Assembly (NCBI GenBank): GCA_036560465.1
Contig: DATBRD010000054.1
Location: 3,261 to 67,260 of the forward strand
Direction of reading: 5' to 3'
DNA: 64,000 nt
From: Methylobacter sp.
GTDB lineage: Bacteria; Pseudomonadota; Gammaproteobacteria; Methylococcales; Methylomonadaceae
Part shown: piece by piece, positions 5,354 to 52,241 of the stretch
Position numbering within the stretch: the first letter of the stretch is position 1
How the letters are laid out: each line of letters begins with the position of its first letter
Translations under genes and position numbers: made by a program
The notes under the pieces: model-generated
Databases searched by the model: none
Told to the model about the DNA's origin: nothing
Seen by the model: the letters and a program-made list of their open reading frames with translations, nothing else

Positions 5354-6298
5354 ATGACGCATGCATCAACAGCTTCAGGAATCTATGGCGATATCTTGCG
5401 CGAATGTGTCGCCTGTAGAGCCGAGAAAATAAGATACTGGCGGCAGAAAAACTTCCACTATACCGAGAACGCCAGCAACAAGGAGTTCCATATATACCGT
5501 TGCGAAAAATGTGGAACCGGATTCTTAAACCGGCCGCCGCATGTGAAATGGCTGCAATCGATTTATCAATACTCAGGCCAGGCGCTGACCCAGTCGATAA
5601 CGCTGGAGGATGTGCTGGCTAGAGAGGAAGAGTTTCCAAACTGTACGGTGGACGCCGAGCGCATGAGCCGGCAAGCCCATCTGATCAATAATTCGGGCAA
5701 TGATCGGGCTCTTGATATTGGCTCGGGCTTTGGTTTTTACACGCAGGCACTCAGGAAAGCGGGCTATCGGACAGTCAGCATCAATCCCGGTAAATATGAA
5801 AACGAAGTGTTCAAAAACCTGAATGGCGATGAACCTATTGATGTGATGTTTGAAAATTACGATTCCTCGGAGCCGTTTGGCGTAGTGATGATGTCGCAGG
5901 TACTGGAGCATCTGCTCGAACCGGATAACGCGATCGGCAAGGTCGCGGATCTGTTGGCGTCGGGCGGCGTTTTGGCTTGCGCTGTGCCTAATTATGATTC
6001 ATTTTTAGTCAAGCTGCTGGGCACCAAGGACAACGCTTGCTTGTGGGTGCCGGAGCATGTCAATTATTTTACCGAGGACGGCTTAAAAGCCTTGATGGCA
6101 CGAAACGGCTTTAAGGTCGTTAAAGTGGAACAAATAACCCGGATCCCTTTCAACGCGTTATCCAAACGGCTGCGGCTGAAAGGAAGATCGGCTGCCGTTG
6201 TCGACGGTTGGGTCAAGTCTTTGCAAGCCCCGTTTGTCCGATTGATGCACCATTTTGGGTTGGGCATCTATATCAATTTATATGCGGTCAAGAAATAA
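5354..6298 (+). CDS. Class I SAM-dependent methyltransferase with N-terminal Cys4 zinc ribbon
   Basis: CVAC and CEKC pairs, ALDIGSGFG SAM motif, QVLEHL and HVNYFT motifs, and a strong RBS (AAGGAG) upstream. Confidence 0.85.
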   Translation: MTHASTASGIYGDILRECVACRAEKIRYWRQKNFHYTENASNKEFHIYRCEKCGTGFLNRPPHVKWLQSIYQYSGQALTQSITLEDVLAREEEFPNCTVDAERMSRQAHLINNSGNDRALDIGSGFGFYTQALRKAGYRTVSINPGKYENEVFKNLNGDEPIDVMFENYDSSEPFGVVMMSQVLEHLLEPDNAIGKVADLLASGGVLACAVPNYDSFLVKLLGTKDNACLWVPEHVNYFTEDGLKALMARNGFKVVKVEQITRIPFNALSKRLRLKGRSAAVVDGWVKSLQAPFVRLMHHFGLGIYINLYAVKK

Positions 6299-6308
6299 AA
6301 CGCGTTTT

Positions 6309-6495
6309 TTCACCATAGAGGACCCGAACGACTGCATGGATGCAGGAGGTAGAGCACCAACAGTAGGCGCTTTAGGCGACGCAGGAGCAGTTGCCGAGAT
6401 CACGAAGATTCTGTTGTGATAGATCGGATGGTACGAAACGTGTTGTTTTGATGACTATCAACACACTTCGTGTTCCCCGTGTTCTTCGTGGTGAA
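6309..6495. repeat. Composite intergenic inverted repeat whose left arm is interrupted by an inserted ~75 bp repeat
   Basis: The right arm CTTCGTGTTCCCCGTGTTCTTCGTGGTGAA (6466-6495) pairs with a split left arm, TTCACCATAGAGGAC (6309-6323) plus ATCACGAAG (6399-6407). CCGAACG...GTTGCCGAG lies between the two pieces. Confidence 0.7.
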
Positions 6496-6523
6496 TAATC
6501 ACTAATAAATTTAGACAAATCAT

Positions 6524-7306
6524 ATGCTAACTATCGTTATTTTAACCAAAAACGAGCAAACCAATCTGCCGAGCTGCCTGGCGGCTATTCCTGAGCGCTA
6601 TCCGATTGTGATTGTGGATTCAGGAAGCACCGATGATACGGTGGTCATCGCCATTAGCCGGGGTTGCAGAATTTATACCAATCCGTGGCCCGGCTTTGCC
6701 GAGCAGCGCAATTTTGCGATCAATCAGTGCGATATCCACACGCCCTGGATATTGTTCGTCGATGCTGACGAAATCTATCCGCAGGCATTCTACGATTGGT
6801 TTGAATCCGGGATGGCGGACGTCGAGGCAATTGATGTGCTGATGGTGCCGTCGACACTTTATCTTCGCGACAAACGCTTGAACTATGCTCCCGGTTATCC
6901 GATTTACCACCCAAGACTGGTGCGCAGGGAAACGACAAGCTTTGTCCGCAACCATACCGGGCACGGAGAAGCCGTCGTTGATACCTGCCGGATCGGGCAT
7001 TCAGATATTCCGTATGACCATTATTTCTATCATGGAGAGATCATCGAATGGATGCATAAACATGTCGGTAAAGCCGCGCAAGAGGTGCAGCTCCAGCCGA
7101 CAGCGGGGGCAGTAATGACCACAAGAGGACGTTTAAGCGTGTTATTGGGACGATCCTGGATAAGGGTTATTGCCCGTTTTTTATACCACTTCGTATTTCG
7201 GGGTGGTTTCTTGGACGGAGTTGCCGGGCTGGAGTTTGCATTGATGTTTACCTGGTATGAGGCAACCATCTATTTGCAGGCAAAAGCCGGCGCTCAGGCG
7301 AGGTGA
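6524..7306 (+). CDS. Glycosyltransferase family 2
   Basis: TIVILTKNE, IVDSGSTD, GFAEQRN and FVDADE (DxD) motifs. Confidence 0.92.
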   Translation: MLTIVILTKNEQTNLPSCLAAIPERYPIVIVDSGSTDDTVVIAISRGCRIYTNPWPGFAEQRNFAINQCDIHTPWILFVDADEIYPQAFYDWFESGMADVEAIDVLMVPSTLYLRDKRLNYAPGYPIYHPRLVRRETTSFVRNHTGHGEAVVDTCRIGHSDIPYDHYFYHGEIIEWMHKHVGKAAQEVQLQPTAGAVMTTRGRLSVLLGRSWIRVIARFLYHFVFRGGFLDGVAGLEFALMFTWYEATIYLQAKAGAQAR

Positions 7307-7311
7307 TTACT

Positions 7312-8166
7312 ATGAAAATTTCATTGGTGTTAGCAACGCTGGGAAGAGACTGGGAGTTGGCCGATTTCTTGAAGTCCCTGGTCAACCAAACCTATAAGGA
7401 CTTTGAATTGATTATCATCGACCAAAACAAGGACGGCAAGATCGACGCCATTGTCGAGCAGATCAGTAGCTGCTTGGATGTGAGGCATGTGAAAGTGGGT
7501 TTTACAGGTAATGCCAGGGCCAGAGATTACGGCATAGGCTTGGCTCAGGGCAGAATCGTCGCGTTTCCGGATGATGATTGCGCCTATGACAAGGATGTCC
7601 TGAAAAAAGTGGTCGCCGAGTTTAAACGGCGACCAAACCTTTCCATCCTGGTGGCCGGTTCTTATGATGCTTCAACCAGTCGCTTTAGCATCGGCGTAAA
7701 CAGTAACAAAGCAGGATATTTTTCACGCTTTCATATGATGGGGGTAGAGTTCACTCAGTTTTTCGATCGGAGAAAGATTGATAGCAAGCTCTTCCACCTG
7801 GATCATGATTTCGGGCTCGGTTCCAAGTATTCAGGGGGCGAGGGCTTTGAACTTTTGTATCGTCTGCTTCGGGCAGGCTGTGCTGCCTTTTATACCCCGG
7901 AAATAAGAATTTATCACCCGGATAAAGACCACTATAAGCTGGGTACCGGAAGAATGCTGATGTATTCCACCGGTGTTGGGGCTTACATGAGGAAATTCGC
8001 CAATCAGAAGGATGTATATATTCTGTACTACATCATTCGCAAGATGTTTGTCGTGCCGATCCTGAAAATGATGCTGGCACTGGTTTTATTGAACCCGAAA
8101 AGACTGGCTTATTCTTTTTACAACCTCGTCGGTGTTTGGCGTGGGTTTTTGGCGTATGGAAGGTAG
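7312..8166 (+). CDS. Glycosyltransferase family 2
   Basis: SLVLATLGR, IIIDQN and FPDDDC motifs. ATG 7312 follows GAGGTG; the alternative start is GTG 7303, overlapping the upstream stop. Confidence 0.9.
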   Translation: MKISLVLATLGRDWELADFLKSLVNQTYKDFELIIIDQNKDGKIDAIVEQISSCLDVRHVKVGFTGNARARDYGIGLAQGRIVAFPDDDCAYDKDVLKKVVAEFKRRPNLSILVAGSYDASTSRFSIGVNSNKAGYFSRFHMMGVEFTQFFDRRKIDSKLFHLDHDFGLGSKYSGGEGFELLYRLLRAGCAAFYTPEIRIYHPDKDHYKLGTGRMLMYSTGVGAYMRKFANQKDVYILYYIIRKMFVVPILKMMLALVLLNPKRLAYSFYNLVGVWRGFLAYGR

Positions 8167-8176
8167 GATGGGGTTC

Positions 8177-8331
8177 GAGACTGTGAAAGTATTATCCAGA
8201 TCAGACTGAAAGGATTATTCACCACAGAGAACACGGAGGACACGGAGGACACGGAGTCAATGTAATATAAAACTCCGTGCTCTCTGTGTTCTCTGTGGTG
8301 AGTCTCTTAAACAGAATACTCTCACAGTCTC
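8177..8331. mobile_element. Non-autonomous MITE-like element, copy 1 (155 bp)
   Basis: 17-bp terminal inverted repeats GAGACTGTGAAAGTATT / AATACTCTCACAGTCTC (1 mismatch), flanked by a direct GTTC duplication (8173-8176, 8332-8335). No ORF; internal hairpin at 8220-8300. Confidence 0.85.
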
Positions 8332-8396
8332 GTTCGCTGCCCCTCCACCACTCACCGTTTCAATTTATTTAGAGCATGTTTTACAGGAGAAATACT

Positions 8397-9596
8397 ATGA
8401 ATGCAGGTATTGTTACCACGCATATACCCCCGGCTAAGGGTTACGGCGGAGTGTCCGTGACAGCCAGCGTTTTGACCAAGGCTTGGGCGGAGCGGGGCCA
8501 TAAAATGGCGTTGGTTGCATCCGACGAGTCAATTGACGGCCGCTTGCGTCCCGAACAGGTGCTTCTTGGCGAACAGGTAGATGTCAGGCTGTACCGATGC
8601 TATGGATTCAGGCGCTGGGGCTTTGGTTTGGGCGCTATTCCGAAACTGTTTAAATTATGCCGAAAGGCGCCGGTGGTCTACATCCACGGCATCGCAACCT
8701 GGCCGTCTACCTTGGCGGCTGTTTTTTGCAGCCTGTTGCGCCGCCCGTTCATGGTGGCCGTGCATGGCGGCCTGATGCCTGAGCATGTCGATTTGATACG
8801 GCGGCAGAAACCGCATAAATGGCTGTTCTATAAATGGTTGACCTTTCCGACCTTGCGCCGTGCCATTGCCGTGCATTGCACCAGCGAGACCGAGGCCGAA
8901 GGCGTATACAGTGTGCTCGGCAAAGATGCCCGCATATTGCTGGTTCCGAACGGTATAGACAGCCGCGAATTCAAGGTAGCCCAATATCCCGAAGGGGAAG
9001 GCATGAAGCTTTGCTTTCTGGGACATATTCAACAGGAAAAAGGCATCAACGCGTTTATCCGGGCTTGGTTGAAAGTCCGCAATCCTGAGGATCGTCTGGT
9101 TATCGCCGGCAGAAGTGTGGATGGCGATTATTTTGAAGAGTTTCAGGCGCTGGTCGAACAGGCTCAAGGTGCCATCAGTTATAGCGGCTACCTGGAGCGC
9201 AGCGAAGTGATGGACTTGCTGGCGTCCAGCCATTTTCTGGTGTTGCCTTCGGGATTGGAGGAAGCCGGAGGCATGCGCGAAAACTTCGGCAATGTAGTGG
9301 CTGAAGCCATGGCCTCAGGACGCCCTGTGCTGGTCGCCAAAGGTTTGGCATGGGACCATCTGGAATCGTTTAGAGCCGGTTTTGTTTTCGAGAGAACCGA
9401 AGCGTCGGTATGCGAAGCGCTGCGTAAGGCGCAAGCTTTGGAGCGCTGGGAGTGGGAACGGATGTCGTTCAATGGCCGGCAGTATGTTGAACAGCAGCTC
9501 GATCCGGTCAAGCTTGGCGAGCGGGTCTGGCAGGTGTTGAAAAAATTCGACCGGACTAATTTGCCGCAGTCGCTGGCCAAGAGAGTTTCGTTATGA
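8397..9596 (+). CDS. Glycosyltransferase family 4 (GT-B)
   Basis: GYGGV, VHGGL, LVPNGID and ENFGNVVAEAMASGRPV motifs. Start placed at the ATG after AGGAG (8385-8389). Confidence 0.92.
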   Translation: MNAGIVTTHIPPAKGYGGVSVTASVLTKAWAERGHKMALVASDESIDGRLRPEQVLLGEQVDVRLYRCYGFRRWGFGLGAIPKLFKLCRKAPVVYIHGIATWPSTLAAVFCSLLRRPFMVAVHGGLMPEHVDLIRRQKPHKWLFYKWLTFPTLRRAIAVHCTSETEAEGVYSVLGKDARILLVPNGIDSREFKVAQYPEGEGMKLCFLGHIQQEKGINAFIRAWLKVRNPEDRLVIAGRSVDGDYFEEFQALVEQAQGAISYSGYLERSEVMDLLASSHFLVLPSGLEEAGGMRENFGNVVAEAMASGRPVLVAKGLAWDHLESFRAGFVFERTEASVCEALRKAQALERWEWERMSFNGRQYVEQQLDPVKLGERVWQVLKKFDRTNLPQSLAKRVSL

Positions 9597-10516
9597 GCAA
9601 GGTCGGCCTTATCATACCCACGCTGAATGCCGGCAGTCTTTGGGAGCCGTGGCTCAAAGCCTTCGCGCAACAGACCCGGAAACCGGACTGTCTGTTGGTG
9701 ATCGACTCGTCGTCCAGCGACGGTACCGTGGCCTTGGCGCGCGCTCACGGTTTTGAGGTGCAAGTGATTTCCAGGTCGGAATTCAACCATGGCGGCACCC
9801 GTCAGTTCGGCGTGAATAGGCTGGCTGAGATGGATATTATCGTGTTCCTGACTCAGGATGCCTTATTGGCCAAACCCGATGCTATCGAGCGCTTGCTGGA
9901 GGCATTTGTTGATCAGCAGGTCGGCGCGGCTTATGGGCGCCAGCTTCCGCATCGGAACGCCGGGCCGATTGCCGCTCACGCCCGTCTGTTCAATTATCCG
10001 TCCGAAAGCCAGCTGCGCAGCCTGAACGACCGGGCACGTTTCGGTATCAAAACCGCGTTCATATCCAATTCCTTTGCCGCCTATCGGCGCAATGCGCTGA
10101 TGCAGGTCAGCGGCTTTCCCGTCGACACCATCATGAACGAAGACACTTATGTGGCTGGAAAAATGCTGGTGTCCGGCTGGAAAATCGCTTACTGCGCCGA
10201 TGCTCACGTGTTCCATTCCCATGACTACGGTTTTGTGGACGAATTTAAGCGTTACTTCGATATCGGCGTTTTCCATACGCATACTGCATGGCTGCAACAG
10301 ACATTCGGCGGCGCATCCGGCGAAGGTTTGCGCTTTGTAATTTCGGAAATGCGCTACTTGATGAAACATGCCCCGTTGCTGATTCCTTCCGCAGTGTTGC
10401 GGACCGGGTTGAAATGGCTCGGATTCAAGCTGGGTGCGTTACATCATGGCTTACCGCTAGCTATTCTCAGACGCGTTAGCCTGCATAAGACTTACTGGCT
10501 TCGCGCTGTACCGTAA
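9593..10516 (+). CDS. Glycosyltransferase family 2, rhamnosyltransferase-like (RfbN/WbaN type)
   Basis: IDSSSSDGT, FNHGGTR, FLTQDA, SNSFAAYR, NEDTY and HSHDY motifs; ATGA overlap with the upstream gene. Confidence 0.85.
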   Translation: MSKVGLIIPTLNAGSLWEPWLKAFAQQTRKPDCLLVIDSSSSDGTVALARAHGFEVQVISRSEFNHGGTRQFGVNRLAEMDIIVFLTQDALLAKPDAIERLLEAFVDQQVGAAYGRQLPHRNAGPIAAHARLFNYPSESQLRSLNDRARFGIKTAFISNSFAAYRRNALMQVSGFPVDTIMNEDTYVAGKMLVSGWKIAYCADAHVFHSHDYGFVDEFKRYFDIGVFHTHTAWLQQTFGGASGEGLRFVISEMRYLMKHAPLLIPSAVLRTGLKWLGFKLGALHHGLPLAILRRVSLHKTYWLRAVP

Positions 10517-10594
10517 ACTTTCCGGCTGTGTTATTTACGAAAATTTTCTTCTCGTATGCCGCACCGAGTACCAGAATTGTACCGAGTGAGCGCC

Positions 10595-10826
10595 GTAGGG
10601 TACGAGACTGTGAAAGTATTATTCAAATCAAGCTGAAAGGGTTATTTACCACAGAGAACACGAAGGACACGGAGAAAATAATTCTATGAACTCAACCCAT
10701 TAGAATCTCCGTGTTCTCTGTGTCCTCTGTGGTTAGTCTCTTAAACCGAATACTTTCACAGTCTCGTACGCATCGCGTACCTTTTTGGAACTTGATCCAG
10801 AAAAAGGTACGCGATGCGTACCCTAC
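10595..10826. repeat. GTAG-family REP doublet (REPIN-like), left REP interrupted by the MITE
   Basis: Removing the MITE and one GTAC copy restores GTAGGGTACGCATCGCGTACC, the exact reverse complement of GGTACGCGATGCGTACCCTAC at 10806-10826. Confidence 0.85.
10604..10765. mobile_element. Non-autonomous MITE-like element, copy 2 (162 bp)
   Basis: Perfect 17-bp TIRs GAGACTGTGAAAGTATT / AATACTTTCACAGTCTC with GTAC on both flanks (10600-10603, 10766-10769). Internal hairpin arms at 10648-10674 and 10707-10733. Same orientation as copy 1. Confidence 0.88.
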
Positions 10827-10936
10827 CGCTGGCTGAGAGCTTTGCCATAAACCTATCCGGCAAAAATCGATGTGATTGCATCTAGTTGGATTTATAATTC
10901 CTTGAAAATATACTTATTTCGTAATGGAGCGAACCT

Positions 10937-11932
10937 ATGACGACACCTCCTAAAACTGTACTCGTGGTCGGCGGCGCCGGTTACATCGGCTCCCATATGG
11001 TCTGGCTGCTCGGCCAGAAAGGCGTCGATGTCGTCACGCTCGACAATCTTTCCAGCGGACATCGCGATGCGGTGCTGCACGGAAAATTCGTGCATGGCGA
11101 CATTGCAGACCGGCTGATACTCGACAAAGTGTTCAGTGAGCACAAGTTCGATGCGGTCATGCATTTCGCTTCGTTCATCCAGGTCGGCGAATCGATGCAG
11201 GACCCCGCCAAGTATTACCAGAACAACGTCGTCAACACGCTCAATCTGCTCAATGCGATGCGGACTTATGGGGTCGACAAGTTCATTTTTTCATCCACAG
11301 CAGCCATCTTTGGCGAGCCGGAGTATAGCCCTATCGATGAAGCCCATCCCAAGCGGCCTATCAATCCTTACGGCTGGAGCAAACTGATGGTTGAGCAGGC
11401 CTTAGCCGACTACGACCGCGCTTACGGTCTTAAATCGGTTTGCCTGCGTTACTTCAATGCCGCCGGAGCGCATCCTGACAGCTTGCTCGGCGAACGGCAC
11501 GATCCCGAAACGCATCTCATCCCGTTGGTATTGCAAGCAGCCTCCGGTCGCCGTTCGGATATTACCGTGTTCGGTCGTGATTACGCTACGCCGGACGGCA
11601 CCTGTATCCGCGATTACATCCATATCCTCGACCTGGCCGAAGCGCACTGGCTGGCCCTGCAATATTTGCAAGCGGACGGCCAAACCACCGCGTTTAACCT
11701 GGGCAATGGCAACGGCTATTCCGTCGAGAGCGTTATTCAGGCGGCTGGGCGAATCACCGGTAAGGCGATTCCTGTGCAGGAAGGCCAACGCCGCGAGGGC
11801 GATCCCGCCCGGTTAGTGGCCAATGCCGATAAAATAAAGCAGCAACTGGGGTGGCAGCCCGCTTATGCGGATCTGGATGCCATCGTGGGGCACGCTTGGC
11901 AATGGGAATGCAACAGCCGGAAAGCGAGTTGA
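10937..11932 (+). CDS. galE: UDP-glucose 4-epimerase
   Basis: GGAGYIGSH, FIFSSTAAIFG, YGWSK (YxxxK), LRYFNAAGA and DGTCIRDYIH motifs. Confidence 0.96.
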   Translation: MTTPPKTVLVVGGAGYIGSHMVWLLGQKGVDVVTLDNLSSGHRDAVLHGKFVHGDIADRLILDKVFSEHKFDAVMHFASFIQVGESMQDPAKYYQNNVVNTLNLLNAMRTYGVDKFIFSSTAAIFGEPEYSPIDEAHPKRPINPYGWSKLMVEQALADYDRAYGLKSVCLRYFNAAGAHPDSLLGERHDPETHLIPLVLQAASGRRSDITVFGRDYATPDGTCIRDYIHILDLAEAHWLALQYLQADGQTTAFNLGNGNGYSVESVIQAAGRITGKAIPVQEGQRREGDPARLVANADKIKQQLGWQPAYADLDAIVGHAWQWECNSRKAS

Positions 11933-18042: not shown

Positions 18043-18084
18043 ATGGTTGAAAAAAACCGCAGTAAAACGGTTTTTTTCAACCAT
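18043..18084. repeat. Perfect 17-bp inverted repeat with 8-bp spacer
   Basis: ATGGTTGAAAAAAACCG-CAGTAAAA-CGGTTTTTTTCAACCAT. Confidence 0.8.
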
Positions 18085-52208: not shown

Positions 52209-52241
52209 AAAAAAAGGGCGACCCTTTGGTCGCCCTTTTTT
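52209..52241. terminator. Intrinsic terminator downstream of dxs (potentially bidirectional)
   Basis: A-tract, GGGCGACC-CTTT-GGTCGCCC, T-tract. Confidence 0.88.

Follow-up and report, generated by a model that had tools for sequence, protein, structure and literature searches.

Two transposase-less elements in a Methylobacter polysaccharide locus, very probably derived from IS1182-family insertion sequences, and their preference for palindromic targets

Introduction

What are the two small non-coding elements that interrupt a polysaccharide gene cluster of Methylobacter, and what determined where each of them landed? The question is raised by a 64-kb stretch of contig DATBRD010000054.1 (the window, by which we mean the whole stretch of DNA analyzed, and within which all positions are numbered), where two related sequences lie in direct orientation at 8177-8331 (copy 1) and 10604-10765 (copy 2). 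An earlier note on this DNA described them as MITEs (miniature inverted-repeat transposable elements) that insert into repetitive extragenic palindromes (REPs). We conclude that both elements are very probably transposase-less MITEs derived from an insertion sequence (IS) of the IS1182 family that circulates in Methylococcales and other Proteobacteria, and that they land preferentially in hairpins and REPs.

Structure of the two elements

Copy 1 is 155 bp long and is bounded by terminal inverted repeats (TIRs) at 8177-8193 and 8315-8331 that agree at 16 of 17 positions, while copy 2 is 162 bp long and has TIRs at 10604-10620 and 10749-10765 that agree at all 17; both are given on the forward strand, and neither contains an open reading frame (ORF). 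Direct reading of positions 7900-11100, together with a repeat finder, confirmed the original description of two ORF-less elements that share 17-bp TIRs (GAGACTGTGARAGTATT), subterminal sequence and an internal hairpin, and placed the copies in direct orientation. They are 90% identical over the left 77 nt and again over the right 68 nt, with an identity of ~80% over the whole length and central loops that differ. The 17-mer GAGACTGTGAAAGTATT (at most one mismatch allowed) occurs four times in the window, as compared to 0.07 occurrences expected, and all four are element ends. The internal hairpins located by the repeat finder span 8219-8301 in copy 1 (29-nt arms, 90% complementary) and 10648-10733 in copy 2 (35-nt arms, 80% complementary). 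In each copy the arms consist of 9-bp tandem units of the type CACGGAGGA, which in copy 1 read CACRGAGRA, and single-strand folding compared with shuffled sequences yields z = -8.7 for copy 1 and z = -9.2 for copy 2.

Each copy is flanked by its own 4-bp repeat. Copy 1 lies between GTTC at 8173-8176 and GTTC at 8332-8335 (both on the forward strand), and since GTTC is non-palindromic this is a direct repeat, in agreement with its first reading as a true target-site duplication (TSD). Copy 2 lies between GTAC at 10600-10603 and GTAC at 10766-10769, as had been described.

A family with a common terminal repeat

The TIR was scanned against 185,579 species genomes and was found at no fewer than 120 loci; the family counts given here refer to the TIR-bounded elements among the matches listed. 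The hosts among these matches are mostly Methylococcales (Methylobacter, Methylovulum, Crenothrix, Methyloprofundus and Methylotuvimicrobium), and further hosts are Thiosymbion, Thiohalocapsa, Alcanivoracaceae, Arenicellales and Paracoccaceae. Pairing of the ends produced 70 distinct elements, most of them 113-350 bp long. An exact 4-bp TSD is present in 41 of the 70, as compared to 2.3 expected from shuffled pairing of the flanks, and 50 have a TSD when one mismatch is tolerated. Tabulating the flanks of copies elsewhere in this way, as the earlier note had suggested, thus brought out the 4-bp duplications and also the preference for palindromes and REPs that is described below. The base that precedes GAGACTG varies across the 70 copies, indicating that the TIR begins at G and that the duplication comprises 4 bp rather than 2. 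An alternative delimitation with a 2-bp TSD (TT/TA, with the TIR CGAGACTG), which would make the elements MITEs of the IS630/Tc1-mariner type with a TA duplication, was rejected because the repeat is 4 bp long across the 70 copies. A TIR scan of viral contigs returned 21 single matches, which were judged consistent with chance.

Further copies appear to be present in the source community or genome. In sequencing run X1, the source run that holds the window sequence, words from the MITE end reach ~4 times the genome depth (genome depth ~80; window 10560-10810), which suggests ~4 copies, and two further contigs of the run end in the left end of the MITE; the two window copies are therefore not the only ones. 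Words from the 9-mer hairpin arms reach ~15 times the genome depth in the same run, suggesting ~15 copies of this arm. A joint from 8247 to 10707 in X1 was considered as a deletion of the intervening glycosyltransferase (GT) genes and rejected; it contains a different loop of 16 nt and was read as a third MITE copy elsewhere.

The partner insertion sequence

A full-length IS with the same ends, for which the earlier note had proposed to look, was found in both Methylobacter and Methylotuvimicrobium at a length of 1.7 kb. Four elements of ~1.7-2.3 kb in the TIR scan have these ends (L047, L036, L122 and L121), and the first three encode one protein of ~500 aa each. These proteins score 405, 394 and 415 bits on the IS1182 model NF033551, whose cutoff is 270, and they match the Pfam entries DUF772, DDE_Tnp_1 and DDE_Tnp_1_6. 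The partner family had been guessed to be IS1182- or IS5-like; the first half of that guess is upheld by these scores of 394-415 bits, and IS5 was discarded because its models score below their cutoffs. Homologues named as IS1182-family transposases occur in Methylobacter, Methylovulum and Methylotuvimicrobium alcaliphilum, and the homologue contigs from Methylobacter and Methylotuvimicrobium contain ISs of 1703-1708 bp with a perfect GAGACTGTGAAAGTATT at both ends. The IS at locus L270 belongs to a Methylobacter metagenome-assembled genome (MAG; DATBQB01) that also holds a MITE of the window's subfamily (L092), and further ISs with the identical TIR are found at L274, L277, L047 and L036. Full-length elements with this TIR sit in REP loops with 4-bp duplications; the copy in M. 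alcaliphilum 20Z (L272) reads TTTCCCAAGC-TCCA-(IS, 1707 bp)-TCCA-GCTTGGGAAA. Judged by eye, the right end of this L272 IS is similar to copy 2 over ~30 nt at the latter's 10604 end.

By the ISfinder definition, members of the IS1182 family are ~1.3-1.95 kb long and have a single ORF, TIRs and direct repeats that are short or variable. The partner ISs fit this definition, with 1703-1858 bp, a single ORF of ~500 aa, TIRs of at least 17 bp and 4-bp repeats. The small elements in turn have several of the features that distinguish bacterial MITEs: they are short (under ~500 bp) and without coding capacity, have TIRs and a TSD of fixed length, occur as dispersed copies and share their ends with an autonomous IS. 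The proposed tie between these non-autonomous elements and a DDE transposase is therefore supported by the identical TIR that bounds IS1182-family ISs, and mobilization in trans by this transposase is the probable consequence.

Target preference of the family

The target logo of 44 sites with an exact TSD shows G and C at the two positions that flank the TSD on each side, in 76-77% of the sites. The TSDs themselves are A+T-rich and variable (TAAA in 8, TCCA in 5, GTAC in 5, GATA in 3, CGGA in 3, and others). When the 8 bases outside the TSD are compared, at least 6 are complementary in 25 of the 70 elements, as compared to 3.6 expected, and reconstructed empty sites fold at -6.1 kcal/mol versus -3.7 kcal/mol for sites 70-100 nt away (Mann-Whitney p = 5e-6). 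In most of the sites that form a hairpin, the duplicated 4 nt are exactly its loop. GTAG/CTAC tags are present on many of the target stems; others are members of a TTCCCAMGC family, of which uninterrupted examples also occur.

The target rule is thus GC-NNNN-GC at the center of a palindrome, with the TSD usually forming the hairpin loop. The REP unit GTAGGGTACGCNNNGCGTACC, which has a 3-nt loop, is an exception, as the GTAC in its stem next to the GTAG tag is used instead. The rule put forward in the earlier note, GTWC inside REP stems, has to be abandoned in its general form: the TSDs vary, the signal lies in the flanking GC, the TSD is normally a 4-nt loop, and GTAC within a stem applies only to the 3-nt-loop REP. 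Both window sites have the half-motif GC on one side of the duplication, reading GG-GTTC-GC for copy 1 and GG-GTAC-GC for copy 2.

The REP doublet interrupted by copy 2

On the forward strand, the 5' part of the interrupted REP occupies 10595-10603 and consists of GTAGG followed by the left GTAC of the duplication, and in the segment 10766-10786 the right GTAC is followed by the remainder of the REP on its 3' side (GCATCGCGTACC) and by a T run. A spacer or loop at 10787-10800 separates this REP from an intact, inverted partner, AAAAAGGTACGCGATGCGTACCCTACCGC, at 10801-10829 on the reverse strand. Deletion of 10604-10769 yields GCCGTAGGGTACGCATCGCGTACCTTTTT, which matches the reverse complement of the right arm at 10801-10829 (GCGGTAGGGTACGCATCGCGTACCTTTTT) at 28 of 29 positions, 26 of them consecutive, so that the claim that excision of copy 2 regenerates the reverse complement of the partner REP stands. 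The excised site, 88 nt in length, folds as one near-perfect long hairpin (z = -11.5). The restored REP, GTAG-GGTACGC-ATC-GCGTACC, is a short imperfect palindrome with a GTAG tag (the GTAC-type REP target is also written GTAGGGTACGCATCGCGTACC); it corresponds exactly to the family consensus, and the 4-bp duplication is needed for this restoration.

This REP is a member of a multi-copy family. The unit GTAGGGTACGCNNNGCGTACC gives at least 183 matches in at least 120 metagenome loci, with 10 copies on one contig, and 45 convergent (inverted) doublets are present among the matches listed, 40 of them spaced 26-90 nt from start to start and 5 overlapping palindromically; the window contains only the one doublet. 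In run X1, REP words reach ~13 times the genome depth, and six contigs run into the REP without a MITE. The restoration of the doublet and the existence of the multi-copy family together identify the target of copy 2 as a GTAG-tagged, REPIN-like REP doublet. REPINs are GTAG-tagged REP doublets mobilized by REP-associated tyrosine transposases (RAYTs) (PMC3116915, PMC3733652); the site resembles them in its tag, its short G+C-rich stem-loop, its inverted doublet and its many copies, with the difference that here the REPIN is the target and not the mobile element studied. The same GTAC next to the GTAG tag of GTAGGGTACGCNNNGCGTACC has been used by four insertions at unrelated loci, namely window copy 2, L080 (M. 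marinus A45), L188 and L217. The idea that one repeat family inserts into another is therefore sound, as the MITE family prefers palindromes, GTAG-tagged REPs among them, and the REP doublet that holds copy 2 genuinely belongs to a multi-copy family.

Weighing the interpretation

Several observations weigh against reading the elements as IS1182-derived MITEs that seek palindromes. A tblastn search of the window revealed no IS1182 transposase or remnant, so the partner IS of the source genome is deduced from other genomes. In the family, 19 of the 70 elements have no direct repeat, and several of these have perfectly inverted flanks instead (for example TCCA...TGGA); ~30% of the insertion sites form no hairpin, which makes palindromy a preference and not a requirement. 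Exact empty sites are also missing from the material searched: that of copy 2 (GTGAGCGCCGTAGGGTACGCATCGCGTACC) has 0 matches in metagenome contigs, and that of copy 1 is absent from orthologous loci and from the contigs of runs X1, X2, X3 and X5. At the site of copy 1, the residual hairpin has only -7 kcal/mol and z = -0.5, with 59 of 200 shuffles as good, and a ~97%-identical relative lacks both the MITE and the 10 nt GATGGGGTTC that constitute the 5' arm of this weak hairpin.

Contigs of runs X1, X2, X3 and X5 laid on the window include no joint that skips exactly 10604-10769, and at the orthologous loci of other Methylobacter genomes site 2 comprises 46-84 bp with neither REP nor MITE. In the ~97%-identical contig, which stems from a different metagenome, 8160-8352 is replaced by 17 other letters; the site there is MITE-free but not exactly empty. 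The expectation of empty REP sites at orthologous loci is thus borne out only insofar as relatives lack both MITEs, since the intergenic DNA differs as well and an exactly empty site was not among them. Copy 1 itself stands directly after a stop codon. Its excision leaves GTAGGATGGGGTTCGCTGCCCCTCC, as originally written, but the degenerate GTAG hairpin seen there does no better than shuffled sequence. Because the hairpin is weak and the relative lacks its 5' arm, site 1 is not accepted as a REP; it resembles GTAGGATGGGC-type REPs (L063) only loosely.

The alternative that survives best accepts the same element and assigns it a purely sequence-specific target. A two-fold symmetric complex would read GC-N4-GC in duplex DNA, REPs would contain this motif by chance, and hairpins or cruciforms would have no role. 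The GC-N4-GC motif is indeed the strongest signal of the logo, the sites devoid of a hairpin are accommodated, and both window copies have GC on one side and a poor centered palindrome. However, positions 3-8 outside the TSD have no conserved sequence and are nonetheless complementary in 46-61% of cases, as compared to 25-29% in controls. Stems from different genomes are also wholly dissimilar (TCCCAAGC, CAATAGC, GGTTAGC and others), yet remain palindromic, and the relative IS1272 targets hairpins that have no sequence consensus. We consider targeting by sequence alone possible but rather unlikely, and on the strength of the sequence-free palindromy and the behavior of IS1272 we favor a structural component of target recognition.

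It is very unlikely that the palindromic flanks were produced by the insertion itself, through repair that copied one flank in inverted form, instead of being present beforehand. Such a process could be suspected from the relative that lacks GATGGGGTTC along with the MITE at site 1, and from copies that have perfectly inverted flanks and no direct repeats (L029, L088 and L273). It is contradicted by the abundance of the uninterrupted GTAC REP and the six source-run contigs that enter it MITE-free, by TTCCCAAGC-TACA-GCTTGGGAA, which is intact in L143, and by the exact family consensus obtained on excision of copy 2. MITE and IS copies that have no direct 4-bp repeat but perfectly inverted flanks, the loop included, were seen at L029:6841-7069, L088:1515-1684, L092, L126, L273:1126-2832 and L278. 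They might stem from recombination between elements lying in REPs of opposite orientation, as is suggested for L029, L088 and L273, or from some feature of insertion into hairpins.

The preferred reading, of two IS1182-derived MITEs, also has to account for the genes between them. The locus is a Methylobacter polysaccharide cluster with the order flippase, methyltransferase, GT2, GT2, copy 1, GT4, GT2, copy 2 with the REP doublet, and epimerase, in which the segment between the copies (8397-10516, forward strand) holds a GT4 gene (8397-9596) and a GT2 gene (9593-10516). Two direct copies that bracket exactly two genes might suggest a composite transposon that brought in the GT4-GT2 pair. Yet each copy has its own matching TSD, and the two outer flanks disagree (GTTC versus GTAC); M. 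tundripaludum and several MAGs have the order GT2-GT2-GT4-GT2-epimerase but not these MITEs; and the copies are only ~80% identical. Given the separate TSDs and the synteny in MITE-free relatives, a composite transposon is rejected as highly improbable. The same two lines of evidence, together with the limited identity, indicate that the window insertions are independent of each other and not recent duplicates, and that the GT4 and GT2 genes are, as far as the sequence tells, bystanders and not cargo.

Finally, the notion that these are immobile structural or regulatory hairpins, such as terminators or RNA-stability elements, with 4-bp repeats that arose by chance, would suit their intergenic position and strong folding but is extremely improbable in view of the 4-bp duplications found in a family of ~70 TIR-bounded elements, which are scattered over unrelated loci of many genera, of ends identical to those of transposase-encoding ISs, and of the lack of a T-run terminator or promoter consensus on the elements. 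The scan for promoters and terminators, which found neither on either MITE, returned a single terminator-like match near them, at 10766-10780, which is the 3' REP arm adjoining copy 2. A search of window positions 6000-11200 against Rfam returned only spurious, sub-threshold matches of microRNA type, and the MITE does not correspond to a known RNA family.

Nested modules and other hairpins

What the family shares throughout is limited to the 17-bp TIRs, whose conservation extends beyond single genera and includes both Gamma- and Alphaproteobacteria. In the interiors, the hairpin modules are of no fewer than five unrelated kinds (the 9-mer-repeat hairpin, CCCCTCTTTAGCAAAGAGGGG, CGTCATTCTGGCATGGATGCCAGAATGACG, GTAGG...CCTAC REP hairpins and GTGGGAGGGGCTTTAGCCCC; L023-L142), and some MITEs contain nested REPs (L116, L135). 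This diversity suggests that the loop of the MITE has repeatedly been invaded by other hairpin repeats. The 9-mer-repeat hairpin also occurs without TIRs, for example at window positions 6308-6500.

A module of ~47 nt, CGACTGCATGGATGCAGGAGGTAGAGCAACGCAGGAGCAGTTGCCGA, was observed inside such hairpin repeats, in the window at 6308-6500 (the module itself at ~6330-6398) and elsewhere at L145:1375-1524, L146:1434-1586, L217:8919-9053, L216, L161:8700-9100, L175, L099, L083, L184 and L259. It has neither TIR nor TSD, always follows an A and often stands at the center of a palindrome; it is nested inside itself in L161 and inside one MITE in L217. Of its two stems, one follows GTAG; 4 pairs show compensatory changes, and 97% of cells are paired. 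Rfam searches with window positions 6000-11200 and with L161 gave no match to it beyond spurious, sub-threshold hits of microRNA type. The module may be a mini-element of the REP/RAYT or IS200/IS605 type, or a small structured RNA.

In other Methylobacter genomes, the space between genes upstream of GT4 (window 8167-8396) contains different hairpin or REP elements (L143:3120-3500, L145:3201-3500, L146:3266-3500 and L144:1-107), whose arms of (GGCGAAA)n or AACACGGAT units surround TTCCCACGC-type REPs, and in the ~97%-identical relative it holds no small repeat. Small repeats seem to have a hot spot in this space. Two long perfect palindromes of the window, at 18043-18084 (17-bp stem, 8-nt loop) and 52210-52241 (14-bp stem, 4-nt loop), have A/T runs and no insertion, so not every hairpin in the window is occupied; they look like bidirectional terminators.

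Discussion

The elements have ends in common with IS1182-family ISs, are flanked by a 4-bp staggered duplication, and as a family prefer GC-NNNN-GC palindromes, including REPs. A plausible course of events begins with a DDE transposase of ~500 aa, which would be encoded by a full-length copy of 1.7 kb at another locus of the genome or in the population and would bind the 17-bp TIRs and mobilize the MITEs in trans. Integration would then proceed through 4-bp staggered cuts, to which the duplications testify, and would favor the center of short palindromes so that the loop is duplicated, as the site statistics indicate; the target may be recognized either in duplex form, as a symmetric site, or once extruded as a hairpin or cruciform. 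REPs would offer the commonest palindromes of this kind in these genomes. For copy 2, the point of entry would have been one of the two arms of an inverted REP doublet, at the GTAC next to the GTAG tag, and for copy 1 a half-site with only a weak hairpin. On the whole, the earlier note was largely right, in that the MITEs, their TSDs, the IS1182 partner and the palindrome preference hold, whereas the general GTWC rule, site 1 as a REP and the exact empty site are not supported.

Much of this has precedents. MITEPye1 of Paracoccus yeei is a 159-bp MITE of IS1182 type with 18-bp TIRs starting GAGACTGTG, 4-bp repeats GGCC and the partner ISPye18 (PMC11578231). It resembles the window elements in being an intergenic, ORF-less sequence of ~160 bp with TIRs of 17-18 bp matching those of IS1182 ISs, 4-bp direct repeats and a long stem-loop. 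The first 9 bases of its TIR (GAGACTGTG) are the same as in the window TIR; past base 9 the TIRs diverge (GAGACTGTGTAAAAACTC versus GAGACTGTGAAAGTATT in the window), and interior and host differ. A palindrome or REP target is not mentioned in the passages of its description that were consulted. Within the IS1182 family, IS1272 and TnSha1 of staphylococci target hairpin-forming inverted repeats with little sequence conservation, often terminators (PMC4923244, PMC5678879), and a review, as cited in those two papers, notes that some IS1182 members target palindromes. IS1272 differs in that it inserts at the base of the stem and deletes or replaces the stem-loop with no TSD, whereas the present elements leave the hairpin in place and duplicate 4 bp, usually those of the loop. 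An outcome of the latter kind figures only as the hypothetical pathway (c) in the model of PMC5678879.

REPs are likewise established landing sites of other elements, among them IS1397, ISKpn1 and ISPsy8 (IS3 family), ISPpu9, ISPpu10, ISPa11 and IS621 (IS110) and ISRm22 (IS4), and targeting of REPs is documented for the IS3, IS110, IS4, IS256 and IS5 families, of which IS1182 is not one (PMC1525189). The likeness to the present elements lies in REP palindromes serving as preferred sites, one repeat family inside another; the difference is that those are full-length ISs with transposases of other families. Insertion in a REP loop with a duplication of 3-4 bp is also seen with IS1397.

A more far-reaching picture can be drawn, in which an IS1182-type transposase recognizes extruded hairpins and cuts across and duplicates their loops, the TIR pair acts as a chassis for nested hairpin repeats, and MITEs in REPs together with REPs and mini-modules in MITEs would add up to an ecosystem of small mobile DNAs driven by structure, and not to one parasitic relationship only. 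We regard this picture as speculative and, as a whole, doubtful.

The literature already contains hairpin targeting by an IS1182 member (IS1272), insertion of ISs in REPs and, with MITEPye1, an IS1182-derived MITE that has 4-bp repeats, and the window elements are a real but ordinary example; they leave the current understanding of transposition unchanged and illustrate known biology tidily. What is added here is an explicit target rule in which the loop is duplicated, along with the wide spread of one conserved TIR. For the annotation of methanotroph MAGs, the elements account for a common cause of contig breaks and of variation in intergenic length, and in the present genome two direct MITE copies could mediate loss of the GT4-GT2 pair by recombination. 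The IS1182 family joins those known to colonize REPs and gains a countable rule, GC-N4-GC at a hairpin loop with a 4-bp duplication, that complements the stem-loop deletion carried out by IS1272.

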